A stretch of DNA of 64,000 bases. Origin: Spizellomyces punctatus DAOM BR117. Taxonomy: Eukaryota. Every line of letters starts with the position of its first letter. The first letter of the stretch is position 1. The notes beneath the pieces are model-generated. The model had not been told where the DNA came from, ran no database searches, and saw nothing but the letters and a program-made list of their open reading frames with translations. The stretch lies in assembly GCA_000182565.2 (NCBI GenBank), contig KQ257454.1; one strand, given 5' to 3'. Below, in pieces: positions 3,460-25,491 of the stretch. The translations under genes were made by a program, and so were the position numbers.

Positions 3460-5411
3460 TCACTCTATAGCAGTCCAATCCGTCCTCTGCTTCCCTCTCC
3501 TCTTATTCTTTTTATCATGCATTTTTTTCGCTTTACCCATGACTTGGGGTTCGGCTCCTTGATGAGGGTACACCTTGACCCGATTGAAATCGGCGGAAGC
3601 GTATTTTCCCATTGAACCTGCTCGTACGGTTTGTTTTTGGGGTGCAAAAAAAGCAGCGTCCAGTAGTGAAGAGTTTGGAGTGCTAAGTGAGGTTGCTGGT
3701 GACTTGCCCTTGGCGTCAGATGGTGGTGTGGATTCGGGTTTGCGCTTTGCAAAGCGCTTGTTTTTGTACATGGGTGCATTGAAGGTGTCGGGGTTGATGT
3801 TGGGTGGTGGGTGGGCGTAGAGGATTTTTCCGTTGACATAATCTTTGAGAATGTAACGGGCTGCACGGGCTTCGTCGGGATTTCCTTGACTGCTTTTTGT
3901 AAAACCTCTTGCTACGGCGTAAGCAACAAGAAGCTCCGTTCCTGTTGGCTGTCGATCTTCATCGACGCCTTCTGCATTGCGTGTGCGAATTTTGATTCCG
4001 TAGACGTTTTCAAGGACCCATTTGGGGACGCGTTGTGCAACCAGTGAGCTGGGGCCTGTGAATTCACGGAGTTGGTCAATGGGCAGAATGCCGTTGACCA
4101 CTAGATCGGCTTTGGTGGTTGCAAACGAGGGGAATACAAGACCGGGACAATCACAGAGGATCATGCTTTCAGAAAGATGAATTGTCTGAAAATGCTTGGT
4201 CTTGCCAGGTGTGGAGGAGACAGTGACACGTTTGGCGCCCACTAAGGCGTTCAGGGTAGAGGACTTTCCGACGTTGGGATAACCAACAAAACCAATGGTG
4301 GTTTTTTGTCCACCAGATTCCACCTTGCGGAGCGGCTCGGGACATTCCGTTTCAAAGAGCTCGATGAGTTCATCGGCACCAATAATCCGCGCACGCTCTG
4401 GAACTTCGGCTTCCTCATCGACCTGTATCAATCCTGTAAAGGAGGGTCGTCGTTCCGATTCTTTCCGGGGTTGATCGACATCAGGTACACTTCCGTCCTC
4501 AATGTCGTCCTCCTCCTCATCGTCCTCGTCATCCTCCCGATCCACTTGCAGCTGCGCCAAGGCCTCTTCTGCTTTACGCTCTTCTTCTTCGGCCTCTAGT
4601 TTCTCTTTTGCCAAAGCAGCAGAAAAGAACATGTACCGAATACCCTCACGCTCAAAGTAATCCGCCCACTGCAGTCTCTGCTCGACCGTCAACATATCCG
4701 CCTTATTCACCAGCAACAAATTCTTTTTTCGGGGGTCCACTTCCTTGACGTATCGTTCCACATCGGTCGAACGAAACAGCAGTGGATTTCGGGAATCCAC
4801 AATCTGCACCACCAAATCGGATCGCTCAATCACTCTCCACAATTGTCTCCAAACTTCCAAGTTTCTTTCGTAAGGAGTCATGATCAGGCCCTTTTCTTCC
4901 TCCAATGTTGCCAGTCCTCGCCTCCAATCCAGAAACGAATCATTTTCTCGTCGCTTGAGTTCCTCAGGTGTCGTCGTTGTGTCCCACTCTGGTCGTCTCG
5001 GAACGGTCAACAAGTGTTTATGCTCCTGGTGCTGTTGAAGAGTTTCTTTTTCCTTTTCGGGAGTGAGGAGGAAAGGGTTTTGATAGACGTTGGATACAAC
5101 CGTGATGTTGAGTTTCTCCGCTGTGAATTCTGTGCCGGCGAGCTGGGCAGTATTGAGGAAGGCCTCAAGGTCGTTCTCTTGGGTGATGGATTGCATTTTC
5201 GTCCAGTTGGAAGTAGACTCGTCCACTTCTGTGGTGTGCTGAGACCACAAAATACACAAGGTCAAAAAAAACTCGCACTCTTTCGTTTTAACGTCAGAAG
5301 CTTGCTTACCCTAATAGACCCATCCGGATTCATTTTGGTATTTGCATTGAAGCGAGTGCGCATAAGCGCCTTTCCTAGGCCTGCCTTTTTCTTGCTTGTT
5401 GGTAGAGGCAT
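3460..5411 (-). CDS. LSG1: Large subunit GTPase 1 (60S biogenesis/export, circularly permuted GTPase)
   Basis: Motifs TPYERNLEVWRQLWRVIERSDLVVQIVDSRNP, NKAD, GYPNVGKSS, TPGKTKHFQT and DCPGL. Exon 1 MPLPTSKKKAGLGKAL starts at 5411; intron 5239-5309 (GTAAGC..CAG). Confidence 0.95.
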
Positions 5412-6176: not shown

Positions 6177-6763
6177 ATGAAGTACCTCCTCCCCCTCCTC
6201 ATCCTCCTTCCCACGACCCTCGCCCAATTCGCAACGGATTGTGGTCCATCCCTTCAAACAACATTCAATCAATGCGCGTCGAATTCGCTTACAGATGGGA
6301 ATGGCCAACCTGCTCCAGCAGGAAGTTCGGTCGAACAGGCATGTGCATCCGTGCAAGCCAATCAGGCGGCGTATTACTGCTGTTTGTGTAAAGGATTTAC
6401 CGGGATCCAAGGATGGTGAGTATTGTTTGGTTGTTGAGTTGGTGATACCGTAGCTGATTGAGAGTTATGTACAGTATTGCGAATTACTGCCCGCAATCGG
6501 CCTCAGCACCTTCGATTGGTCAGTCTGTTGCGCAATTTTGTGGTGCGTGTCAACCTGCCAGCTCTAGTACGGTCTCGCGGGTCAGTGCGAGCAATGTTCC
6601 CTTCCCTACGTTGAGTGGGGGATTGCCCTCTGCGAGTGCTACCCCTTCTGCTACGCCTGCCCCGACAGCTGGGACGCAGGCCAAGGGAGCCGCTGCGGGA
6701 TTGGGTGTTCAGTGGGGGATTGCCGTGATGGGTGTTGTTGGTGGAGCTGTTGCGTTGGTGTAA
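6177..6763 (+). CDS. Small Cys-rich secreted, probably GPI-anchored protein
   Basis: Signal peptide MKYLLPLLILLPTTLA, Cys-rich domain, S/T/P-rich stalk and hydrophobic C-terminus. Intron 6416-6474 (GTGAGT..CAG). Confidence 0.8.
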
Positions 6764-6888
6764 GTGAGCTTTGGCACAAGCAACAAATTATTGAACTTGG
6801 GCGTGCGCCCTAAAGTGGTGAATGTGGGGACCATATAAGGTCGTGTACTTAGGTGTTAAAAGCCCTGTATCTGAAGAAATGTGAAATA

Positions 6889-6921
6889 TAGTGCGGAGCC
6901 GATGGGTATTGGCACTAGTAC
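6889..6921 (+). repeat. Left terminal inverted repeat of the Fanzor element
   Basis: 30 bp perfect, or 33 bp with one mismatch, against 9002-9034. Confidence 0.95.
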
Positions 6922-7061
6922 ATAGATTCCAACCAATTTAATCATAATTTTACTCGATTTAGACTCATGAACTATGGTTTGTTTGATCCAAAAATCCTAT
7001 GTAAGTTGTCGTCGCCCATTTTCCCAGGCTTTCATCTTTTTCGACAGATACAGATATCATC

Positions 7062-8941
7062 ATGCCGCCAAAGAAAAAGCAAAAGCTTGAAAAACCTACT
7101 TGCTTACATACCTGTAACAAGACTTCCTTTGCAAAAGCTTTCCTGCCAAACTACCACCAACGGCTTCTAGATTACATCGCCATCATCCATCAACTCGCCG
7201 ACCACGCTTCCCACGCGCTGAAATTCTACATCCTATCTGCACCATCCTTCACCGTGAACGAGGAGACCATCGAAGCGATTCTCTATCTTCTCAACAAGGG
7301 GGAGGCTTGGCATCCAAGAAAGGAAGCAAAGAAGGCATGGCGGGATTGTTTGCTGCCATATGTTCAACGGTACTGCCAAATCGTCGGCTTCGTTCATCCA
7401 AATCTACGAGGCGAGCAGCAATCAGTCAATTACCTGACAGCGAGTATGATGACGAACCTGAAAGTCAACATTCAAGAGCATTGCATGACGATGCTGCTCC
7501 GATATATCAATCTGCGGCTTGACGTGAAGGGACGGAAAGGGCAACTGCCACCGAAAAGCGATGCGCGAAAAGCTTTCTTTACTCGGCTACGCTATTTAAA
7601 GTCAGTTTTTCTTTTTGATATCGTGCCCGAGTCGCTGGATGACTTGACCGCTGAAGAGAGTGAGCTTCTAGAAGAGATCTGGACACTTAACCTGCCATTT
7701 CCTGATCAAGACAAGCCGCTTGCCTACCTCATTGCCATTGACGCAATGTCCTTCTTTCCTGCATACTGTCGGTTGTCAAGCCTATATGAAAAGCATGGAT
7801 TTCGACGGTTCAGTGCGATACCTCTGCGCCGCTCGCTCATCCAAAGCAACATTCGCATCGACTCTAAAATCCTGTACCAGCATATCCTTTGCATCACGCA
7901 GCGAGAAGCAGAAGCCGTAGAGAAGGTCGATTTATGGTTGCGCGTCTGTAATCTACGTACCAAAGCTTTTCGGTCTCGCTGTGGTATGCATTTTGAAGGC
8001 TCGATCACGACGGACGGAACCTCGGTGTCTGTATACCTAAAGCACCCAGAAGCTGACAAGTATGGAAAGCGCAGTGGTGGGAAAAAGTCAGCAAACATGA
8101 TGGAGGCAGAGGTTAAAGTGCAATACGTGGAGAAAAACTTACCTGCTTGTCGGGCAGCAGAAAACATTGTTGTCATTGACCCAAACAAGCGCGATATTCT
8201 CTACTGCCAAGACAGCAATGGTACGACGTTCCGTTACACTGCCAACCAGCGAGCCATGGAGACAGGTAGCCGGCGATTTGCAAAGAGACGGGAAGCAATG
8301 AAGAAAAAAGCGGGAATTGACCTCATAGAATCACGAATACCATCTCACAAGACGATGAATCTCATGGACTTCACTCGCTACCTTCTCGTTCGCCGCGCTG
8401 ATTGGGATCGTCGCAAGTACTTCTATTCGCATCCTGCCCACACGCGGTGGAAGTGGCATGCATTTATAAACCGTCAGAAGAGTGAATCGAACCTCATATC
8501 CAACTTGCGCAACAAGTACGGTGAAAACTTTACCATTGTGATGGGAGATTGGAGCGATGCCGGTCAAACTGCAAGATTTCAGACCTCATCAAAGACGAAA
8601 GGTTGGCGCACCCTCTTTACAACCGCATTGATTGTTTTCTTCTTGATGAACACAAGACCTCATCTGTTTGCCCTCGCTGTTCATCCTCTGAGTTTGTTGA
8701 GAAAGGCTTCAAAGAACGACCTCATTCAAGACCTTGGCGGCGACATGAAGGCAAGGTTGAAAAAGTCCATGGATTGCTGGGTTGTACCAACCCTAACTGT
8801 TTGCAGCAAGCCTGGATGATGCGCTACTGGAATCGAGATACACTGTCAACCTGCAATATGCTAACGATCGTGCCATCAATGTTGGATGGGCACTGTAGAC
8901 CAGAGGTGTTCAGCAGGAGGAGTGTTCCAGCCGTAGCGTAG
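7062..8941 (+). pseudogene. Fz1: Fanzor1 RNA-guided endonuclease (SpuFz1-like), frameshifted at ~8619-8620
   Basis: ORF 7062-8819 has NLS-like MPPKKKQK, TDGTSVSV, RuvC-I VVIDPNKRD and VMGDWS. After GWRTLF the protein continues in the frame of ORF 8549-8941 with NRIDCFLLDE (catalytic E), CPRC..CTNPNC (zinc finger) and WNRD (RuvC-III), ending at TAG 8939-8941. Intronless. Confidence 0.93.
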
Positions 8942-8960
8942 CATAGATTAGTTAGATTAG

Positions 8961-9049
8961 CTTTTCCGAACTGGTTGTCGCCGGTTCAATCCCTGGTGCG
9001 GGTGCTAGTGCCAATACCCATCGGCTCCGCACTAAATAGTAATATCAAG
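8961..9049 (+). ncRNA. Putative Fanzor omegaRNA (scaffold ~8961-9034 plus ~15-nt guide from 9035)
   Basis: Lies between the ORF stop and the element end. Stem GAACTGG(8968-74)/CCGGTTC(8981-87) and stem TGGTGCGG(8994-9001)/CCGCACTA(9027-34). Position and sequence resemble the SpuFz1 omegaRNA as I recall it. Ends are approximate. Confidence 0.8.
9002..9034 (+). repeat. Right terminal inverted repeat of the Fanzor element
   Basis: GTGCTAGTGCCAATACCCATCGGCTCCGCACTA, the reverse complement of the left TIR. Confidence 0.95.
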
Positions 9050-9175
9050 AATGTTATGTTACAACCGTCCCATCGCCTGCTGCGCACCAATGCGTGTATG
9101 TCATCCTTTGTTGCCATAGCACCAGCCTACCCAGATCCGCCCCTCACCGACGGTTGCCTGCATTCGCCTTGTGCG

Positions 9176-10457
9176 ATGCCTGTCCCTCCCCGACTGTCCC
9201 TTCTCCTCCAGTCCCCTGTGCGATGGAAGAGACATGCGAGTACTTTTGCCCAGACGATAGGAACAACAGCAACAACATCATGCAACACCTCAAAACGAAG
9301 AGCCTGGATTGTAACCGCCGGAAAGCCAGGAAACGATCGCCAAGCCATAGCACTAGCAAAAGGGCTAGGATGTACCATTGAAATGAAACACATTGTTCCA
9401 CATTCCAGTAAGAACACACATATACATCATCTACTACACAAAACAATTTCTAAAAGACATGTGTAGGCATCAAATGGCTTTTTCCAGTCTTTCAAAAACA
9501 TTTCCTCGATTACCGGTCCCAAACCTTTGGTCCCCACAGCGCACCCACCGATCTCCCCTTTTACCTCACCTCTCCAAAGCATGATACACTTGCTCCACCC
9601 TACCCAGATCTAATCCTAAGTACCTGCGCCGAAACAACCCTCGCATCACTACATTTAAAAAAAACGACTCAAACACCGGCAGTCCATATTGGACTCCCGT
9701 TTGTCAGTGTTGAGGAATTTAATGTTGTTGTTGTGTGGAAGTATGCGTGGCCTGTTTTGGGGATGAGGCGGGATGAGAGGGTTGTTGGTGTTGATGTGCT
9801 TTTGGGAGAGGTTTTGGAGGGTGAGGAGAGCGAAGAGTGTGTTTTGGGGGTTTTGGTTTCGGGGGTTCGGGGACGGGAGTTTGGGTGGGGGGTTGAGGAT
9901 GGGTCGAGGTTTGTTAGGAGGTTGGAGGTAAGGTTGCTTTGTGATGTTTTGGATTGGATTGGGTTTATTGATTGATGGTTCTTTTTTGTTTGTAGAGGCT
10001 TTTACGACATGCGAATCCACCCCGTATTCTTCTTGTGACTTGTCAATCGACACCACAAGCACTCGTACAAACCCTCCAGAAATGGTACACCTCCCTCCCA
10101 CCGTCCAAAGCCTCGCAAATCACTCTCCTCCCATCAACAAAACACGACCACGTTTTACGGCATGCGACGCACTTTGCCGTATTCGGAGATGACGTTGCGA
10201 CACTATCGGAATGCCTTGGGTACAAGAAACCCGTGTATGTGATTGGGATGCAGAATTGTCGGGGGGCTTTACGGAGGTTTTATGGGGATTTAGTAGCCAA
10301 GGCTCGGGTACGAGTTTTTGTTCCTGCTGCACATGCTGGGGATGGGGATGTGTTTAGTGATGTTGGGGAGCATCCAGAGTGGAGGTTTGAGGGGGGGTGT
10401 TTGGAGGGGGTTGTTGCGGAGGTTGGGAGGAGGTTGTGGGGGGATGGGTGGAGATGA
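9176..10457 (+). CDS. Mitochondrial fission ELM1-like protein (multi-exon)
   Basis: N-terminal RAWIVTAGKPGNDRQAIALAKGLG and C-terminal HFAVFGDDVATLSECLGYKKPVYV resemble the ELM1 family motifs DGxxGxxxQ and TxDSVSMLSEA..GKPVYV. The N-terminus is basic and presequence-like. Donor sites near 9407 and 9928. Confidence 0.7.
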
Positions 10458-10583: not shown

Positions 10584-11894
10584 CTATCCACTCGCAACAG
10601 GACTATTATCTTCCTCTGATCCACGCCTGGAGACCCCCTCCAACACAATACTCTCAACATCCACATCCCGATTCGTAATCACCAAATTATCCCTATGAAC
10701 AACACACCCAGAATCAACGTACCCCAACAACCCCTCAATTTCCGAGCTTTTGTGGCCCTTGATACGCAAACACTCTGCAAACGAATAATTGACAAGGCCC
10801 TTTCCGATTTCAATGACGGTTTCTGTATCGTTTTTGTGAATGATGGTGAGGAGTCGGACGCATTGTTGGGCATTAAATGTTCCTTCGACGCGGGCGACAC
10901 CAGCTGCAAATAAAGAGGATCGGTGTCTGTTCATGACGGCGCGGACGGCGCCCTTGTCGAGGTAAATGGCGCCAAAGGATTTAAGACCATGGAGGATCCA
11001 CCATTTTCGATCCATCATGGCGTTGGGGCGGGGTAAAAAGTGGGTTCCGTGGGTTGGACAAAATGGGGTATTCGGGGTATGGGATTGGATTTCGGCGAGA
11101 ATGGTGGGAATGAGAGGGGGGTGGGAGAGTGTGATGATGGTTGTGCATCCTGCCGCTGTTGCAAGATCGGCTGCAACGAGTTTGGTCACCATCCCCCCTG
11201 TACCCAGATGAGAGCCAGGTGACGACACAGTTACTTTATCTCGTAGTTCCCCTACATCCTCTACAACACGTACAGGCCTCGCATCCGGATTCGTCTTTGG
11301 GTTATCCGTATATAAACAATCCACATCGGTCATGAGGAAAAGGTAATCGGCATTGACCATTCCAGCGGTAATAGCCGACAAGGTATCATTATCCCCGAAC
11401 CGAATCTCTGCATTCGACACGGTATCATTTTCATTAACGATGGGGACAACATTCATTAACAAGAGTTCTTTGAATGTGTTACAGGCGTTTAGATATTGGG
11501 TCCGTTCCGCCAGGTTCTCCCTAGTAAGCAATACTTGTGCAATGGGGACATCAAATTGCGCAAAGAGACCATCGTACAATGCCATTAATCGCCCCTGTCC
11601 AACGGCCGCGACGGCTTGTTTGACGGCTAAATGCTTTGGACGGCGGTCAAGACCTAGACGGCGTAACCCAACTCCAACAGCACCTGATGAGACGACAACG
11701 ATTTTGTGCCCGGCGGAACGGAGGTGGACAATGGTTTCGACCAGGAGGGAGAGGGTGGAGAGTTTGGGGAGATGGGTTTGTTCATCGCAAATGGATGTTG
11801 TGCCGAGTTTGAGGACGATGGTGAGAGAGGTGGGATTGGTTCGTCGGGGATTGGTAGGTGGAAGTGGCGGTGTTGAAATGCGTGCAGTTGTCAT
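10584..11894 (-). CDS. PRO1: Glutamate 5-kinase with PUA domain
   Basis: IVLKLGTTS, VSSGAVGVG, AAVGQGRL, NENDTV, FGDNDTLSA and GTGGMVTK, plus a C-terminal PUA-like region. Confidence 0.95.
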   Translation of the reverse strand: MTTARISTPPLPPTNPRRTNPTSLTIVLKLGTTSICDEQTHLPKLSTLSLLVETIVHLRSAGHKIVVVSSGAVGVGLRRLGLDRRPKHLAVKQAVAAVGQGRLMALYDGLFAQFDVPIAQVLLTRENLAERTQYLNACNTFKELLLMNVVPIVNENDTVSNAEIRFGDNDTLSAITAGMVNADYLFLMTDVDCLYTDNPKTNPDARPVRVVEDVGELRDKVTVSSPGSHLGTGGMVTKLVAADLATAAGCTTIITLSHPPLIPTILAEIQSHTPNTPFCPTHGTHFLPRPNAMMDRKWWILHGLKSFGAIYLDKGAVRAVMNRHRSSLFAAGVARVEGTFNAQQCVRLLTIIHKNDTETVIEIGKGLVNYSFAECLRIKGHKSSEIEGLLGYVDSGCVVHRDNLVITNRDVDVESIVLEGVSRRGSEEDNSPVASG

Positions 11895-12120
11895 ATTTCA
11901 ACATGTACACCCCACCTTCTTTTAAAAAGAAAAACTAATAATGCCCACCAAAAAAAACAGAGATGAAATACAGCTTTCTTAAACTCGTTGATCGCGTTCT
12001 TTGAATCTTGTCATCTCCTCCTACGCCACATGAGCGTGGCTTATAGATGAAAGTGCAAACCTCACCGAGATCTACAACGCTGTATGTTAGGTTTTTTTTT
12101 CCTGACTTGTCTGAAAAACC

Positions 12121-13179
12121 ATGACATGCCTACCCGACACGCCACTCACATTTGCATCCAAAGGTATACCCCATCGCTACATCCAAGACCCAACCCAACA
12201 AACAACAACACTATGCTGGAAATGCGGTGGAACGGGTCAAAAACCCAGCAAACCCAACCAAAAAACCACACCTCTTGATTGCTCGCCTTGTCAAGGAACA
12301 GGAACCATATCCCCCGTACCCCGCACGACATGTAAACCTACTATACGGCCATTTAGACCGCCACCTGGTTGGACTCCGCGTGGACCACGAACGTTTGGAG
12401 ACCCACATGACCCACTCTGGGCTCCCCGTCCCGGTGACATGCTCACATCCCTCTCTGGTCATTGGATGATTTACCAACTTGTCCATGGACACCGGTACAC
12501 GACTGATGATGTCCTTACAGCCGCTATCGCCGTAACGCATATGAAAGGCACGCATGTGGATACGTATGTGGATCTTGGGACGGGGTTGGGATCCGTTTTG
12601 GGCATGGTGGCGTGGAGTTTGGGTGTACCCAAAGCGATTGGGATAGAAGCACAAGGCATTCATGTGGAACTTGCGCGGAAAACAATATTATTTAACGGGT
12701 GCAAGAATGTTGAGATTGTGCATGGGGATTTACGTAGTACCGAGATCCATATAGATCCTGCCATGTTGGTTACGGGTACACCACCATATTTTCCTTCGAA
12801 TCGAGGTGCACTGCCTACGCATCCCAATCGCGGGATGTGTGCATTTGAGTTGCGGGGGGGTGTTGAGACGTATTGTTTTGCGGCGGCACGGTACCTCAAA
12901 CGTTCCGACAAGGCTCGATTCGTGTTTTGTCAGACGGGGTTAGAAATACCGAGATCAGAATTGGCAATCAAGCACGTTGGAATGCAAATCCACGAACGAT
13001 GGGACATTTGGGGCCGCGCAACACAAACTCAAGCCCTCATCTGCATCTTTTGTTGTGGATGGGGGGAATGGGTAGATAACTACCGAGTTCTTCGATTGGA
13101 TGTACGGGATAGAGAAGGGAATGTATCGAAAGATATGCGGGTGTTGATGGATGTGGTTGGTAAGGCGGTCCTTGTATAA
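12121..13179 (+). CDS. SAM-dependent methyltransferase (TrmN6/YfiC-like) with N-terminal CxxCxGxG zinc finger
   Basis: CWKCGGTG and CSPCQGTG; GHRYTTDDVL; DLGTGLGSV (motif I); GTPPYF (motif IV-like). Confidence 0.8.
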   Translation: MTCLPDTPLTFASKGIPHRYIQDPTQQTTTLCWKCGGTGQKPSKPNQKTTPLDCSPCQGTGTISPVPRTTCKPTIRPFRPPPGWTPRGPRTFGDPHDPLWAPRPGDMLTSLSGHWMIYQLVHGHRYTTDDVLTAAIAVTHMKGTHVDTYVDLGTGLGSVLGMVAWSLGVPKAIGIEAQGIHVELARKTILFNGCKNVEIVHGDLRSTEIHIDPAMLVTGTPPYFPSNRGALPTHPNRGMCAFELRGGVETYCFAAARYLKRSDKARFVFCQTGLEIPRSELAIKHVGMQIHERWDIWGRATQTQALICIFCCGWGEWVDNYRVLRLDVRDREGNVSKDMRVLMDVVGKAVLV

Positions 13180-14190
13180 TCTTATGAGCATAGAGTTTTT
13201 TGTTGGGTGGGCGAGTAGTAAGATTGGTTTGTCAAGCGTGTTTTGGAATGTGGGTGTGTGAGTGGTATATGGGAACGGGCAGGTCCTTGTATAGTTGTGT
13301 TTTTTGTTATATATTTTTAGTGTAGAGGTGACAGAAACTGGCACTAGCTACTACACCAGGGAATAAACCAGCGACAACTGGCTCGGAAAAGCTAAGCTAC
13401 TACTAGGCAATTATACACGCAATACGTAACGGTTGGTTCTAACCGGATAACTGCCCACCACCACACGCGGTCCCTACTAGGCCTTGATCCAGAACTCTTG
13501 ATGGCATTGAAGCCAGACTCTTGCATCCAGGAGCAAATCGACTGGGCAGCGTCACAAGCTGGTGGATTTTCAGTGACAAGGCTTGGAGACTAAAAACTGC
13601 ATGTCAGCGACAGAATGACAGAATGAAATGATGCAATCAGTACATACCAACCAAGCTCAACTAATGTGGCAGTATAATAACAGCTTTGTTGGTTCCGAGT
13701 GGTTGCTGCTGGTTCTAGTTGGTTGTAGTCATCGGGAGGGCGAGGTCCTCGGCACCACCACACATCTGCATTCTCATGGTTGGACTTGACAGTCGCGATG
13801 AGGGTTGCGCAGATGCTTTGCGAGTCGAGGATGGGTAAAGAGGAAAGAGGGAAGAGGGAGCAGGTCCCCCTTTTATAGACCTTCGGCATGCGCCTCACCG
13901 CAGTTTAAAAGAAAAAAACATTACAATCCATGCCACACGGTTTTGAGCGATAGAGGGGGTGCTGATTATGCGATATGATTAACCGGATTAATCCGGATAA
14001 AAATGGGTCCTAGAGCCATTTTCAATCACCTCCACACTATGTATATATTCTACGAGGCATTAGAGTTTCCACATAGATCCGATTACGTCAGCATAGTCCC
14101 CGCTCGGCCACATTTCGTTTAAGGCATCCTTTTGCACTTGGCAAGTTGCGGACTTTTACTTGTCAGAAATCACTTTATATTCCTTTCTAC

Positions 14191-16588: not shown

Positions 16589-17137
16589 TGTTGGGTATAT
16601 TCATTTCAGTATTTTTTTAAATGGCAATACAAGTAAATGGGAGCTATGAGTCTACACGGAACAGGAGATACGTGTATGGATATGGTTTGGGTTGCAAGCA
16701 TTTTGAATGTGTACGATTTCATTATGGCTGGAATAACAAGAGCAGATTTCTTCTTGTTCTTGTTATGACAACTCACACCCATCTCACATCCATCCCGATC
16801 TCTACCATGGTGACCCTCTCCATCCATATTCTTTATCGGCATGCAAAAACACAACAACGTACAGCGCACAATGGTACATTGCACAGAGGTAAAAAAGAAG
16901 ATGAGGTATCATGTTTTCCCCTCTTTTTTTATTAATAACCTACATGACAACAGACAAAAAATATACTAGTAAAAAAAAAAAAAAAAAGCAAGACCAACAG
17001 CCATAGAAAAACCAGGGACAAAACACACACGAGCACTTTTTCGCAAAAACCCCCCTCCACTCCACCACTATGTACATGATATTACCCAGAAAACTAATCC
17101 CTTTTTGCTAATGGGCCGCGCGCGCCTCATAAAACTC

Positions 17138-18640
17138 TTAGGCACCACCGGAAATCACGCCTTGAGCAATACCCGTCACAAGATTAAACGAATGCCTCCA
17201 AAAGTAGTAATTGGACATTAAAATCAAACTCGTCGAAAAGCGGGCAAAGCGGATAAACTGTCGAATAGCTTCCACGACTTGAGCCACAATTTCATTCACG
17301 AGACGGTTAATGCGGTCAGCCCAGCGGGTATAACGAGCCAATTCTTCGGCTTTGCGCTGGTGGGCGGCCCGAATGTCCATTTCAAAGTTGCGATAGTTGC
17401 GGTCCCACGTTTGTTTGGCAATGGAGGCGGGTTCATTCGGGACGAGTTTCGAGGTAAACGTTTCGAGTTCGTTGATGCAGCTATTTGCGGCGCCTTCGAC
17501 TTCGCGGAGAATGGTGCGGAGGTGCTTGCGGCCATTGATTTGAACCGGGTGGTTGCCCTGTTTGCGGACCTTGTCGATAAATTCCGTCCACACCGTGTTG
17601 GCAGCTTCGGCGGCCATGTTGGCCACGAGCGCTTCAGTAGCCGTGACCATGTTGAATCGGTTTCCACCGTCACGAATCTGGGTCAAGAGTTCGGTAATGA
17701 GCTGGACGACTACGGGCCCGTCGACGGGAACACCGCCGACAACAAACGGAACGAGCGAGTCGGCCAAGGTATCTGCGAGGGCCGCCACGGCTTCCTGGTG
17801 CACGGCGGTATTGCCACCCACATTAAAGGGCAATTTGGCAAAGTTTGTGTCAAAGCGCTGACGAACGAGGCGGCGCACGCGGTTTGTTTGTTCATCTCCG
17901 TCCTCTTCGCTCAGCAAGTCGTCCAAGAGACGACGGTCGGGAATGTCTCCATTGATGGACATGTTTTCCACGAGGACGAGCTGACGGGTAATGTCGACAG
18001 CGTCGTCGGCACTGGTGGCGTTTCCCATGTTGACGACTTGCATGACCGTGTCCAAGCCACCGGTCGTGAAGCAGCCTCGCTCGAAAACGTACATTTGGGT
18101 GGAGAGACGGGCGGCGAGACCAATGACAAAGGGGAGGGCACTCTGGTTGTGATTTGCCCCGCCTTCGCAGTCGAGAAAGACAACGGTTCCCGGACCGCGA
18201 GGGTTTTCAAAAACCATCATGTCGATGCCGTGAGTGCAAGGGACATTGCCAGGAGCAGAAGCGAATTTGTGGTCTTCGTTGCCGACCAAGTGCGCGCGCA
18301 CCTTTGTCGCCGTATACGACTTGCCGGATCTATAAAGTGCAGGTGTCAAGTACATTAAAGAAAAACGCCACTCTAGAGAACATTACCTCCCAAATCCAGT
18401 AAAAGCGACAATGTGAATGGGCACTGGAAGCTGAGACAAGACGAGTTCTGCCTCTGGCGTAATGCCTGTAGCCGTGTATTTGATACTTGTACTTCCAGGA
18501 GCAATGGGAGCAGCAACCACCTTGACAAGAGGAACCGGTTGGTCAAGCTCTCTCCAGTCGACAGAAGGAGGTCTCCTTGAGCGAGCACGCGAAATGAGGC
18601 TGTTGAAAGTGCCAGACACGTCCAATGCCATGGATGCCAT
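17138..18640 (-). CDS. Guanylate-binding protein/atlastin-like large GTPase
   Basis: Spliced P-loop IVAFTGFGRSGKS (intron 18330-18386), G2 CTHGIDM and G3 VFLDCEG, followed by a helical C-terminal region. Confidence 0.85.
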
Positions 18641-18867
18641 GGCTGTTGTATAAGAGTGAGAAAATGTACGATACGAGTTTTGAGAGAGATGAGAGAAAAA
18701 GATGATGATGATGACGATGAGGAGGAGGAAGAACGACAAAAGAGAGAGAAGAGAGAGAAGAGAGTATAAATATAACAACAAGTTTGCATGCAAAACACGT
18801 GAGAATTTCACATGTCATGAGAGAGAGAATAAAGAAATGTGACTATTCTTGGCATAATAATTATTGA

Positions 18868-18870
<3 letters not shown>

Positions 18871-18910
<40 letters not shown>

Positions 18911-18960
18911 TGAGAATAGAAATGGGTGAGTGAGTGAGTGAATGAGTGAGTGAATGAAAT
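18871..18960. repeat. (AG)n and (TGAG/TGAA)n microsatellites in a divergent intergenic region
   Basis: (AG)18 at 18871-18906, then GTGA repeats. Further CT and CA tracts extend to ~19390. Confidence 0.9.
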
Positions 18961-19443
18961 GAATGAGTTGAGAAGAGAGAGAGATATATATAAAGAGAGT
19001 CTCTCCCCATTCAAATAGAAATGTCACACATTTAACAACTCACACATTTAACAACCCCCATTCACACACGTTTCTCTCACCAATTCAATTACAAACACTC
19101 ACACACACTCTCTCTCTCACATTTGCATTTGGACATGCTAAATATATAGTCTCTCTTTCTCTCTCTTCTCTCTCTCCACACACACACACACACACATTAA
19201 TATTCATCATAGGGGGGAATTCTCTCTTCACTCTACATGTTGATTTGTCATGACGCGTTTTTTTCTTGATTTATTATTTAATGATGTCACTTTTAGTCTC
19301 TTCTTATTTCAAGCCACTTTCTACTCTCTCTCTTTGACTTGCTAGAGGACATTACTCTTTCTCATTCTCTCTCTCTCTTCTCTCTCTCTCCCTGTCACTC
19401 TACTCTACTCTTGCGCACTCTACTCGTACATTACTCTATACAA

Positions 19444-20519
19444 ATGCCTGATACGGTCATGCCTACTACTACTACTACTACAACTACTACAAACACTTCT
19501 TCATCGCAACGCAAAAGACCTTCCATGAACAGCAGAGCTTGCTCATATCAAGATACTTGTCGCTATCGCTCATCTCTCTCTTCTTCTTCTTCTCGTGAAG
19601 ACTTGCCTTCTAAACTACGTCCTTCTACTCCTGGTGCTTCTGTCAGAGGGCCTCCTCCCACGACACCTGGTTCTCGCCCTAGTCCCTTTTTTCCTGGATT
19701 CTGGGTCAAGGATCCTGCTACTTCTGCTACAACAACAACAACAACAACAAGTATCTGGGCAGAATCCAGTCCTAGTTTGACCGGAAAATTTGTGTTTGAG
19801 ACGGACAGCACGAGTACGCCATCTGATTCATCCCACACACAGCACTTTGCCTTCACAGTCCATGCCAACCGCAACCTCTCGGCTCACTCGCGTCCCGGCA
19901 CTCCCATAGACGAGGCAGGTATCCCCATCCCTATTACTCCCGCTCAATCCGCCGAACGCGACAAGCAGGAAGAGCAGCAGCTGGAAAACGTGCCTCCCAC
20001 CCACCGCAAACTCATGGTCGCCGTGGACGCGGCAGACCAAGAGGGGCTGAGAACCTTGGACTGGGCGTGTAAGGAAATGGTCCAACCTGGCGACACCCTC
20101 GTGGTGGTGCGCGTCGTCAAGGAACAAAAGGGCTTTAAAGGTGAGAGCATGTGTTTGTCTGCACAATGTAGCTTTTAACACGGAAAACTAAAAATTACTT
20201 GAAAAAAGGCGGCTATGCAGCAGCGTCTGAAATGATGAAATCCATTGAATCCCGTGCTCACGAAGAAGCCGACCGCATCACCTGCCATGCCCTCCGCGCC
20301 CTGGGCCAACAATCCAAAAAATGCATTGACCTCTACGTCAAATACCGAACAGGCGATCCTCGCTCGCAAATTCGCGAGCTGGTCGGCACCGAACACCCAG
20401 ATGTCCTCATTGTGGGCAATAATCGCAAACGGGTGTCCAACACTTTTTTCCATGGTGGAGAACAAAGCTTTTTGCCAGAGGGGTCGAATGTACCTGTGGT
20501 GTCGAGTCGTGGAGTCTAG
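19444..20519 (+). CDS. Universal stress protein (USP) domain protein with S/T-rich N-terminus
   Basis: RKLMVAVD..LDWA..PGDTLVVVRV, GDPRSQI and DVLIVGN. Intron ~20141-20208. Confidence 0.8.
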
Positions 20520-20554
20520 TGGATTCAAAACGTTTGTGTAAATGTGCTTTTGCT

Positions 20555-20587
<33 letters not shown>

Positions 20588-20614
20588 TTTTTTTTTTTTT
20601 TTTTTTTTTTTTTT
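20555..20614. repeat. (TG)n microsatellite followed by poly-T
   Basis: Directly visible in the sequence. Confidence 0.9.
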
Positions 20615-21220
20615 GGAGACTTTCTTTTCATTGTTGCGCGTTCGAGTGGGTTGGTCTGGGGAGAGAGAGAGAGAAAGGCGACAGTTGGCATGAGACGTGG
20701 TGTACAGAATATATAAAGTTCGTGCCTCTACTGGTTTGTAGGATAAATGGAGAATGAGGGGGATCCTTTCGACGGGGAAGACATCAAGTCAAATGTACAG
20801 AAATAAAAAGATTACAGCCTTCTTGACTGTTTGCATATTGGAAAAAAAACACGGGATAGTGTTCCCATCCTAACCATCACATTATGACATTTGCTTCTAA
20901 GCACATTTTGGGATTTGCATTCTGGAAATTGCATTGTTAAGCGTGTCCCATCACGGTCATCACGGTCATCTCGCACATCATTGATGCGTCCCCCACTTCC
21001 TGGCCATCACACCCTTATTGCAGATCCAGTTGAAACCATCATGATGATGATGATGAGGGTCATCCGCACTACCGGATCGGTACCGATAACCCGGCTCTAC
21101 CAGCTCTCAACAAATGACTCATCTGCCCACGTGCACACATCATCAACCTTCCCGTCCAAAAAAACCACCGCTTCAAACAACTGATCGCTCATTCCGCTCA
21201 CCCCGCACACTAGACAAAGC

Positions 21221-23035
21221 ATGGGTCGTCGTAAACCCATCGTAACAACAGATCCCCACCCTGATCTCAACGATGGGTCTGTTTCCGATAGCGAACTCCT
21301 CGCTCCCGCCGCTCCCAAACTCAATCTCCGCGAAGCATGGGAATACGAATTTCGAGATCAAGTTGATCCGACAGTGGCATTCTTTTATAAACCGCGAACG
21401 GTGCGACTTGTATGTCATACCCATCATGGTCATGTTTTCTTTTTTTGGTGCTTTTATGTGTGGTTTCATGTTGTGGTTTTTTGTAGTTGGTCCTCATGCT
21501 CGCTGGACTCGTCTACCTCGCCCTCTTTGTCATGAAAGACGATAATGTCGTATTCAATACCAAAGTGTACGTTCCTTTTATTTCTTGCCCACCCACCTTA
21601 CATTGGTGCAAATGAGGGCTGACATGTCTTAGAGGCTTGGGCGCATCAGGTGCCATGCTACTGTTGATTGGCATGCTCCAGTTCCGGGATGGACCTTTTA
21701 TCCGACCTCACCCGGCGTTTTGGCGGATTGTCTTGTCGGCCAGTGTGGTGTATCAAATGATTCTCGTTTTTATAGTCTTTCAGGTATGATGTACTTGTTT
21801 TGCAACCATCTGGGTGCCATCTTTGTAAATGTCACCTAAATTTTTGGTTGTAGAGTAAACATTCCATGCGATCCTTGTTGAAATATGTGGATCCAACATT
21901 GGGTGTCCCCCTCCCTGAACGATCGTATGCCGACAATTGTGAATTGACGGCTGAATCCCTCTGGGTTCGTTTTATTTACTGCTGCGCTTTTTCATTATCC
22001 CAAATGGTTTGACTTGTAAACTCAGGACCAAATGGACGTTTTTGTAATCGCGCATGCACTCGGATGGTACGCCAAAGCCATCGTGTTGCGTGATTACTGG
22101 TTTTGCTGGATTCTGTCCGTCATGTTTGAAATGATGGAGTATTCTCTTGCGCACCAGTTACCGAATTTTGCAGAGTGCTGGTGGGATCATGTACGTGTGA
22201 TCGATTGTTCCTTTTGTTTTCGTACAATGCTGATTTTGGATCTATTTTCGAATTTTTGGGGATAGTGGATCCTAGATGTATTACTCGCCAACTGGGCTGG
22301 CATCATTCTCGGCATGAAGACCTGTCAATACTTTGCCATGNNNNNNNNNNNNNNNNNNNNNNNNNNNNNNNNNNNNNNNNNNNNNNNNNNNNNNNNNNNN
22401 NNNNNNNNNNNNNNNNNNNNNNNNNNNNNNNNNNNNNNNNNNNNNNNNNNNNNNNNNNNNNNNNNNNNNNNNNNNNNNNNNNNNNNGAAATACCCACCTA
22501 CCGCGGAAAATTCAAACGCACATGCACAATTCACACCACATAGTTGGACTGATTTCCAATGGGAAGGCACTAAAACATTTAAAAACTTTTTGGCAGTTAT
22601 TTTACTCTTGTACCTTGTACGTTATCCCTTCCATCCTTTTTTCCAAATCTCTCTCTTACCAATCTATTTCAACTGTAACAGGTCCTCCAATGCGAACTCA
22701 ACGCCTTTTACCTAAAATACCTCCTCTGGCTCCCCCCATCCAACCCCATCAACATCCTCCGTCTCATTCTCTACTTTTTCCTCGCCCTCCCCGCAACCCG
22801 CGAAGCCTACCAATACCTTATCGACCGCCGATGTAAACGTCTCGGCATGCACGCATGGATGGCGACAGCCAATATCCTAACCGAATTACTCATTTGCATC
22901 AAATTTGGTCGAGGAGAATTCGTGGAGCCTATGCCGTGGGGAATTAAAATTGGGTGGGGATGCTTTTTGGCGGTTGTTGGGGGATATGCGATGGTCAAGT
23001 TTGGGTTGGGGAATGGGAAACAAAAGGTTGTGTAA
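21221..23035 (+). CDS. Base-exchange phosphatidylserine synthase (PTDSS1/2 type), multi-exon, spans a gap
   Basis: [53 protein letters not shown] and ELNAFYLK. Confidence 0.9.
22341..22486. other. Assembly gap (146 N)
   Basis: Run of N. Confidence 1.
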
Positions 23036-23233
23036 TTTTGTGTGATAGAAAATATATAATTACGTTATTTATATACATAAAGGTGGTTGGTTGTGGTTTT
23101 CTTTTTGGGGAACTAAATTCATTAGTTTGGTATGGTAAATGTCGAAAAACCACATGTTAAATTTATACACTTGCACCAAAAAATAAACCAAAAAATCTAT
23201 ATACAAACAAACCCAATGCAAACCCCCCAACCC

Positions 23234-25390
23234 TCACTCGATATCACTACTAGGTGGAGCCGGCGGATAATCCCACTCCTCCTCCTCCCCTTTCTTCTCA
23301 ACCTCAACCTCCTTTTCCTCCTCAACCTCCTTTCCAAAAACCAACCGCCCCTTCCTCCTCCGCGCACACCCAACCCCCCTCTCAACCCCCTCCAAAACCC
23401 TCCAAACCCCCTCCTCCACCCTCATACCCTCATTCAAAACCATCCGTCCCGTAACAGAAACTCTATGCCCTCTAACACGCACACAATGCTCATAATACCT
23501 CTGCACAGCTTTTCCGACCATGAGAACCACATCACCATGTCGAACCGCTAACGAGAGGACTGTTTTGGGTTTTTGTGTTGGGGTGGGTTTGGTTCGAAAG
23601 AGCATTAGGGCGTCGCTTCCGAGACTTAGAGATGAGACGGGGCCGTGCACGGTGTGCTCTCCGTCATCGTGCCAATGCATTTCTTTTTCTATTCATTGTT
23701 GATCGTGTTACTTTGCATTCATTTAAAAAAAAGAAAACAAAAAATGCAACGACTTGAACATACCATCACCATCTAAACTCAAATTCTTATGACTTTGATT
23801 ATAAACAGTCCCAAATTCATACACGGCATCCTGTAACCATTGAATGGCTTCCAATTCAATCCGTGTATTCTCCGTCATGGATCGAGCAGGTAAGTTGGAT
23901 GCTTGTGCTGATAAAAAAAATAGTAAAGAATTCTTTCATCGTTGTGCAAAAATGTGAGTCAAGAGTTTACGTACCATAAGCCTCCCCAGAATTCAACACA
24001 AAATTCGACGTCAAAAGCCCATTCACTTTCAACCCAAAACCCTTAAGTCACCACACGTCCAAAAAAAACCACAAAAAAACTCAAAAACACTCACATCTCG
24101 ATTTAACACCCATTCTCCGAAACGGTAACCTCCCCCTCTGCAACCCCTCATAAACCCCATCAACATCCTCCCGATTTCCTGCCAAAAAATGATGTACATG
24201 TCCCCCCTCTGGAAACACATAGACCATTCGTTCCCATCCCCCAAATCGAGGAACATGGTTAGGTATGCGTTCAAGGTATCCCCGGATGTTACTGCTGGGT
24301 TTAAATGAGCGGCAGCCGTATTGTTCCGTTCGGGAGGGTGGGAGGTGTCGGATGGTTGTGCGTGTGTAGATTGGGATGGGAATCTCTATCGTATGCTAAA
24401 TTACCATGATGTCCAAAAAACAAAATATCAACATTTTGCACACAAAAAAAAAGGCATAAACGAAAAAAGAAACTTGCCTGACACCCCTCACAAACCCACT
24501 TGTAAACCCACACCCGTCGTGAAATCCTTCCACACCGATCACACCACATCCCTACTGACCGCCTCCCACATTGTTCCGGTGTCGGCTGTAATGGAATCAC
24601 TGATCGTACTGGTAGACTAAATCCACCAAACACAACAACCATAAACACACAAGAACGATTCGCACATGCACAAACAAACAAACAAACATACCCATCAGGT
24701 AAACTCGGATCCAAAAACCCCGATCGAAGAACCAAATCTCCAGGAGTGGCATACCCACCTTCCACATCCACCTTTAAAAAAAAAAACCAAAAAAAAATCA
24801 ACCAAAAAAAAAAAGCCCAATAATTCCTTCCATGCAACAAAGACTCCAATTTACCTTTCCAAAAACAACTTTACCACTCAAACCCTCAAAACAACAATCC
24901 CCAACATCATAAAACCCACGGCGACGTCCCCTCCCACCACTCTTTAACACACGTAACAGGCTCTACATCTTTTAGGGAAGGGACCCGTTCAAAGCTTGAC
25001 AATGCCATAAAATGTTCCCTGATTTACGAACCCAACTGCCCAAAAAAAAATCCCAAAAAAACATTACCAAAAAAAACAAAAACACCACCACCATCAAAAA
25101 AAAAAAACTCGCAAAACTCACCTCAAAACCGAAACTTGAAACCGAACATTCCCACCAACATCCTCCCCCCCCAAACATGCGTAACAACAAAATACCCCAA
25201 AACAACAAACCCAATTTCATCCGGTTCTGATTTTCGAACACACGATACTCTTTACCCACAATCACCATAACATGTTGTTTTAATCGTTGAGCAGCTAATA
25301 ATCCCGCAACATTCTTGTCGGTTGCGCTTTGGGATCCATTGATTGTGTATCAGAGGGAGTCAAGGTTTTTTCCCCGCCAGCGTGCGTGAT
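23234..25390 (-). CDS. Fungal AlkB-like 2OG-Fe(II) dioxygenase, multi-exon; 5' end unresolved
   Basis: C-terminal exon HWHDD..VSSLSLG..HGDVVLM..YEHCV..RVSVTGR fits HxD..H..RxxxxxR. Upstream exon fragments (VMVIVG; VLGYFVVTHVW; CDRCGR..WVCEGC) are on the same strand. The gene may extend across the gap into ORFs 25350-26156 and 26333-27838. Confidence 0.7.
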
Positions 25391-25391
25391 G

Positions 25392-25491
25392 NNNNNNNNN
25401 NNNNNNNNNNNNNNNNNNNNNNNNNNNNNNNNNNNNNNNNNNNNNNNNNNNNNNNNNNNNNNNNNNNNNNNNNNNNNNNNNNNNNNNNNNN
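25392..25491. other. Assembly gap (100 N)
   Basis: Run of N. Confidence 1.

Follow-up and report, generated by a model that had tools for sequence, protein, structure and literature searches.

A decayed copy of the SPu-1 Fanzor element in Spizellomyces punctatus with a 4-nt deletion in its Fanzor1 gene

Does the element at positions 6889-9034 of a 64-kb stretch of Spizellomyces punctatus DNA (the window, by which we mean the whole stretch that was analysed) encode an RNA-guided nuclease, and is it of a kind already known? A sequence-only reading of the same DNA had proposed that the locus encodes, or once encoded, a programmable dsDNA nuclease. Our analysis indicates that the 2,146-bp element is very probably one copy of the SPu-1 (Spu-1) DNA transposon, carrying an omegaRNA together with a Fanzor1 nuclease gene of the SpuFz1 type that is broken by a 4-nt deletion. 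The kind of element is already known, and this copy is a decayed, ordinary member of the characterised SPu-1/SpuFz1 family of Spizellomyces punctatus. The second half of the proposal, that a nuclease was once encoded, stands; the first half fails, because the gene is frameshifted in this copy. The features of the element (hereafter the Fz copy or window copy) and of its immediate flanks are as follows.

6887-6888, + strand: flanking dinucleotide TA, where Spu-1 loci have a conserved CA; with the TA of the inverted repeat it reads TATA, not CATA (window sequence, X1 contig)
6889-6918, + strand: inverted repeat (IR) of the left end, 30 nt with TA first (matches the right end without mismatch)
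7062-8619, + strand: first 519 codons of the Fanzor1 gene, ending at the frameshift and coding for REC, WED and RuvC-I (D of VVIDPNK) (8gkh match)
8619-8620, + strand: site of the 4-nt deletion (AGCG in intact copies, encoding K-R of LFKRNRID), which shifts the frame (run contigs and paralogue junction)
8621-8941, + strand: remainder of the Fanzor1 gene, read in the shifted frame and coding for the C-terminal part, with the RuvC-II Glu (LLDE), the CxxC...CxxxxC zinc finger, the RuvC-III Asp (WNRD) and the stop codon TAG at 8939-8941 (8gkh match)
8961-9034, + strand: predicted omegaRNA scaffold, 74 nt, comprising stem-loop 1, a linker and stem 2 with the right IR (fold, ghost comparison and covariance model)
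9005-9034, - strand: right-end inverted repeat, 30 nt (perfect match to the left end)
9035-9049, + strand: flank that would serve as a 14-15-nt guide (AAUAGUAAUAUCAAG), from the published 14-15-nt extension past the scaffold

SPu-1 is the prototype Fanzor element. It was described by Bao and Jurka (2013, PMC3627910) as about 2,100 bp long, with terminal inverted repeats (TIRs) 33 bp in length and presumed target-site duplications of TA, in 17 full-length copies of which nine have intact ORFs. In S. punctatus DAOM BR117, Saito et al. (2023, PMC10432273) counted 42 Fz loci, 19 full length and 23 partial, along with 134 'ghost' loci, and reported RNA-guided cleavage, the omegaRNA, the ghost loci and a 2.7 Å structure (PDB 8gkh). 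According to that work, intact SpuFz1 (638 aa) binds an RNA of ~90 nt from the 3' end of its element, made up of a scaffold of 75 nt, with the right IR as part of it, and a 14-15-nt guide from the flank, and the resulting RNP cuts dsDNA that has a CATA TAM beside the guide match, using a RuvC site of D383, E541 and D606. Later Fanzor work includes Xu et al. (2024, PMC11423790) and an engineering paper from 2026 (PMC13434818). SPu-1/SpuFz1 is the founding Fanzor example, for which biochemistry, cryo-EM structures and genome-editing derivatives have been published. What is new here is the detail of one copy, namely its apparently fresh pseudogenisation, its TATA flank, its R291Q substitution and a ghost element 4.3 kb away, and this detail matters only if the pairing of R291Q with TATA represents a functional TAM variant.

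The ends of the element were found just as the sequence-only reading had described them, as perfect 30-bp TIRs with a terminal TA, which is a feature of SPu-1 membership. In the window, the 30-mer that begins TAGTGCGG is present two times, on the + strand at 6889-6918 and on the - strand at 9005-9034, with 0 mismatches between the arms and a chance expectation of 0.00 matches (100 shuffles); a repeat search extended the arms to 36 nt at 94%. The 64 kb contain just this one Fz copy and one ghost. The X2 and X3 contigs cross the right IR and then part from the window after 9038 into a different flank, which hints at other copies sharing this right end elsewhere. No transposase was recognised among the ORFs of at least 60 aa inside the element, the remaining ORFs being overlapping frames only, in agreement with the proposal that the element lacks one. 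The available text of PMC10432273 likewise reports that a transposase was not found inside Spu-1 IRs, and leaves mobilisation in trans open. With both IRs perfect, the element at 6889-9034 could still be mobilised in trans.

The protein was examined in two parts. The single long ATG ORF between the repeats spans 7062-8819 (585 aa), and its N-terminal part matched the S. punctatus Fanzor chain of PDB 8gkh with an E value of 1.3e-302 (query 2-519 on chain 396-923). Beyond ...KGWRTLF the homology switches to the frame from 8552, which reads ...NRIDCFLLDEHKTSSVCPRC...WNRD...SVPAVA up to the stop at 8939-8941, and this C-terminal part matched residues 926-1032 of the same chain (E 1.8e-59). When read through the break, with an X at that point, the protein is 87.6% identical (544/621 aligned positions) to P0005 (SPPG_07727), a protein of 638 aa, the length reported for SpuFz1, with residues as in the 8gkh chain. 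Across five full-length S. punctatus paralogues, identity to the read-through protein ranges from 85.6 to 88.2%. A homologue search returned 60 proteins, among which the window's own 585-aa product (P0002) is followed by annotated S. punctatus DAOM BR117 proteins at 79-92% identity and then by chytrid relatives at ~40%.

All three catalytic residues are kept in the read-through protein; on SpuFz1 numbering these are D383 (the D of VVIDPNK), E541 (the E of LLDE) and D606 (the D of WNRD). Also kept are N385 and Cys548/551/586/591, which, judging from their CxxC...CxxxxC spacing, are the putative zinc-binding four. E541, D606 and the four cysteines all lie downstream of the frameshift. The N-terminus, MPPKKKQKLEK, is a basic stretch common to 10 of the 11 paralogues aligned with the window copy, and several short in-frame N-terminal indels of this copy are also present in other paralogues. 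The protein had been called very close to SpuFz1, with a RuvC D/E/D triad and a CxxC..CxxxxC zinc finger, and each of these points was borne out. That it is encoded by one ORF was right for the homology, which is continuous, but not for a single intact frame, which switches at 8619/8621; the phrase 'frameshift-repaired' in the same reading had already implied as much.

An alignment of the repaired protein to SpuFz1 and to TnpB models had also been proposed, and it succeeded in its first part only. Pfam gave sub-threshold chance matches for both gene parts and none for canonical SpuFz1, in a Pfam copy searched without PF26935, an entry that appears as a precomputed label in the homologue listing. 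There was no significant match to the OrfB_Zn_ribbon/TnpB model or to a TnpB structure, and a family profile searched against the PDB recovered only three Fanzor1 structures (E up to 1). The link of the Fz protein to TnpB and RuvC rests on the published structures, beyond the reach of the sequence searches made here.

Downstream of the gene, 8961-9034 is predicted to form a hairpin on its 5' side and, 3' of it, a longer stem in which the right IR lies (-29 kcal/mol, z -3.13, with 0/200 shuffles as good), and these two hairpins correspond to the hairpin-forming tail of ~75 nt, ending at the right TIR, that had been noticed from the sequence. Numbering from 8961 gives U5, C6, C7 and G20, the nucleotides named in PMC10432273, although the scaffold measures 74 nt by our count against the 75 nt given there. 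Allowing up to 2 mismatches, the 15-nt guide at 9035-9049 matches the window only at its own position. A search of 6500-9500 against Rfam (E up to 1) gave 0 matches, and no promoter or terminator was found at the 3' end, where the scan used bacterial models that are unsuited to a eukaryote.

A second, related scaffold is located 4.3 kb from the Fz copy, within a ghost element that lies in the opposite orientation just downstream of a methyltransferase-like ORF.

13318-14039, - strand: ghost Spu-1 element, 722 bp, with diverged IRs and no Fz gene (scaffold, IRs and CA flank)
13318-13391, - strand: ghost omegaRNA-like scaffold (same two stems as the Fz copy)
13303-13317, - strand: ghost flank or guide

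The left IR of the ghost starts TAGTGTGG at 14039, with CA at 14041-14040 upstream, and its right IR ends ...CTACACTA at 13318. Both stems are common to the two scaffolds, and 3 of the 18 predicted pairs are compensatory. The loop of stem 2 is 8 nt long in the Fz copy and 3 nt in the ghost, which agrees with PMC10432273, where a hairpin loop of 8 nt is set against a bulge of 3 nt. A covariance model of the omegaRNA was built from these two scaffolds and searched in the window and in 20 of 44 metagenome loci gathered as relatives. Among those 20 it matched in one only, L013 (3327-3417, E 5.4e-05), directly after a C-terminal Fz fragment.

L013 2847-3417: Spu-1-like element of ~570 bp, internally deleted (soil-metagenome contig)

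This element keeps the last ~150 Fz codons, the omegaRNA scaffold and both IRs, and its left end reads CA followed by TAGGTGCG. TIRs flanking the gene were sought in five of the 44 metagenome loci (L001-L005, 40-59% protein identity), and none were found in these. In the window, the model also gave a weak match (E 0.013) at 13973-14034 on the + strand, that is, at the left end of the ghost on the opposite strand and including the CCGGATTAATCCGG palindrome; this may be a mere mirror of the IR.

These observations support the reading of the locus as a Fanzor element, because the protein is close to SpuFz1, the ends are the 30-nt IRs of Spu-1, and the 3' tail is a two-stem scaffold matching that described in PMC10432273, ending at the right IR so that the flank becomes the guide. 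The window copy resembles SPu-1/SpuFz1 in its S. punctatus protein family (87.6% identity), its length of ~2.1 kb, its 30-nt IRs starting with TA, its single intronless gene, the lack of a transposase, a scaffold that ends at the right IR and a flank that would be the guide. It differs in the 4-nt deletion before RuvC-II, the left-flank TA in place of CA, R291Q and the N-terminal indels. As with ghost Spu-1 elements, it would at most give an omegaRNA with its guide and no protein, and it has the same two stems; unlike the ghost, which has a different IR and a 3-nt loop, it keeps a near-full-length gene, the canonical IR and the 8-nt loop of stem 2. The ends of IS200/IS605 elements are without TIRs. 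By the structure comparison in PMC10432273, the TnpB of such elements (e.g., ISDra2) and Cas12 have in common with the Fz element the RuvC D/E/D residues, a zinc finger of CCCC type, a guide taken from the flank of the right end, and a TAM on the left-end side. The Fz element departs from IS200/IS605 in its TIRs with a putative TA duplication, and its omegaRNA is reported to have no pseudoknot (PMC10432273).

What might such a copy still do? The omegaRNA scaffold of the broken copy is, as modelled, structurally intact, and the locus could still supply omegaRNA to the Fz protein of intact paralogues, as ghost loci do. One alternative is that the locus is a wholly inert relic, with no protein or RNA made and the element immobile. 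We consider this possible but rather unlikely: the gene is indeed broken and the TAM-side flank mutated, but both IRs are perfect, both stems of the scaffold are kept, and ghost loci that have no gene at all give working omegaRNAs (PMC10432273).

The mutated flank deserves closer attention, as it lies on the side of the TAM. According to PMC10432273, the CA upstream of the left IR is conserved at Spu-1 loci, the TAM is CATA, and mutating any base of the TAM abolishes cleavage. The ghost and L013 both have CA before the TA of the IR; in the Fz copy the sequence at 6887-6890 is TA followed by TA, backed by an X1 contig over 6700-6917 with 0 differences. The empty site cognate to the guide would carry TATA, not CATA, and canonical SpuFz1 probably would not cut it, since any TAM mutation is reported to abolish cleavage (PMC10432273).

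A second difference concerns the protein itself. Residue 291 is Q in the window copy and R in 7/7 of the full-length relatives compared, and R291 is reported to form a hydrogen bond with the target-strand base dG4, the G that stands opposite the C in CATA (PMC10432273). Q at column 291 is also found in P0021, the closest paralogue (92%), and in P0027. PMC11423790 describes the TAM-reading helix of the WED domain as variable and as possibly able to evolve new specificities; the available text of that paper and of PMC13434818 has no mention of R291, and that of the latter none of TATA.

It might be supposed from these findings that R291Q and the left-flank T for C are paired, such that an intact ancestor of the window copy recognised TATA and not CATA. 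In favour of this are the invariance of R291 in the seven full-length relatives and its contact to dG4, the TATA of the copy's own flank, the recurrence of Q in P0021 and P0027, and the variability of the TAM-reading helix. However, the S. punctatus copies with Q291 (P0002, P0021 and P0027) are all three truncated or frameshifted, and R96, the other contact to the same TAM base pair, is unchanged in the window copy. Moreover, P0027 groups in the tree with the R-bearing copies P0010 and P0013 (support 98/94); R-to-Q has therefore occurred repeatedly, which CpG transitions in copies undergoing decay would lead one to expect. We regard a TATA-reading ancestor as very improbable, and we give just as little credence to the idea that the window copy and P0021 descend from a naturally occurring SpuFz1 variant whose TAM specificity had changed (R291 to Q, flank TATA). 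If it were true, the S. punctatus genome would already offer a template for widening the TAM of SpuFz1, and TAM expansion is named as an open need for this protein in the 2026 engineering paper (PMC13434818).

The preferred reading, that of an SPu-1 copy with a broken gene, depends on the deletion itself. At the junction, intact paralogues read LF-KR-NRI, and the window has CTCTTTA joined directly to CAACCGC. In contigs of public sequencing runs, depth at this site was 294, 19.8 and 27.7 for X1, X2 and X3, respectively, with an insertion depth of 0 in all three, and an X1 contig has 0 gaps over 8590-8682. Run X9, which carries another organism code, has AGCG inserted behind 8619, restoring K-R; loose ends of X1 and X2 at 8619 begin AGCG/AGCA and then run on as paralogue sequence. 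This support comes from contigs, not raw reads, and amounts to at most two independent samples, as X1 is possibly the source sample of the assembly and X2 and X3 are one sample. Within these limits, the material that was sequenced does carry the 4-nt deletion. One uninterrupted ORF for all domains, which an active copy needs and family membership does not, is absent from the locus. The 585-aa product contains REC, WED and RuvC-I, but the zinc finger and the two later active-site residues (RuvC-II Glu and RuvC-III Asp) are missing, as the deletion cuts off the correct frame ahead of RuvC-II; sequence and contigs thus show that the locus makes no nuclease.

The gene was probably broken recently. 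At columns that are invariant in the seven other sequences, the window copy has 11 private changes, which is close to the 3-10 counted in four intact S. punctatus paralogues (P0003, 3; P0004, 8; P0005, 4; P0007, 10), and a copy at least 95% similar has the four bases in another run; both observations suggest that little time has passed since the break. The corresponding count for P0013 is 27. P0010 and P0011 are shifted into the same alternative frame as the window copy, at other positions, which fits ordinary decay, as do the 19 of 42 loci given as full length in PMC10432273. The sharing of one alternative frame among broken Fz copies probably reflects ascertainment, since a long ORF survives in shifts of this kind only. 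It is scarcely credible that the gene is intact and active, with the frameshift either an assembly error or circumvented through a ribosomal frameshift or a very small intron, for although every catalytic and zinc-finger residue downstream of the break is kept and private changes are few (11 against 3-10 in the four intact paralogues), the X1, X2 and X3 contigs are without the four bases, the public gene call (P0002, 585 aa) runs into the wrong frame, P0010 and P0011 are likewise shifted at different places, as in ordinary decay, and 23 of the 42 published loci are partial (PMC10432273).

Two details concern lesions in this family. Counting the window copy together with P0010 and P0011 (SPPG_00452 and SPPG_09210), at least three S. 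punctatus Fz copies have frameshifts, each at its own place inside the ~40 codons that precede RuvC-II. A contig of run X9 omits 72 nt at 7367-7440, with one other letter between, which points to a near-identical copy in the organism of that run with a different lesion.

We also examined the genomic context of the element. It lies between a small upstream Cys/Ser-rich ORF that ends at 6763 and a downstream gene of the ELM1 family (PF06258). The surrounding genes are listed below.

3460-5310, - strand: MMR_HSR1 GTPase
9996-10457, + strand: ELM1-family protein (PF06258)
10584-11897, - strand: amino-acid kinase with a PUA domain, glutamate 5-kinase-like
12115-13179, + strand: methyltransferase-like protein with a CxxC-rich N-terminus

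The region had been described as otherwise rich in introns, and this is not evident nearby: within 10 kb there are uninterrupted ORFs of 616, 437 and 354 aa, and the genes that look split are just two, the small one upstream and the ELM1-like one downstream. The assembly has gaps, as N runs, at 22341-22486 and 25392-25491, and long poly-A/T and GT/CT low-complexity tracts at 16947-25107 give rise to many spurious inverted repeats. As for the contigs, the summed depth of X1 is greater at both ends of the element than in its flanks, a quantity that is not a measure of copy number. Contigs of X2 and X3 lie on the element yet are absent from its unique flanks, which could mean either transcripts or low-coverage repeats.
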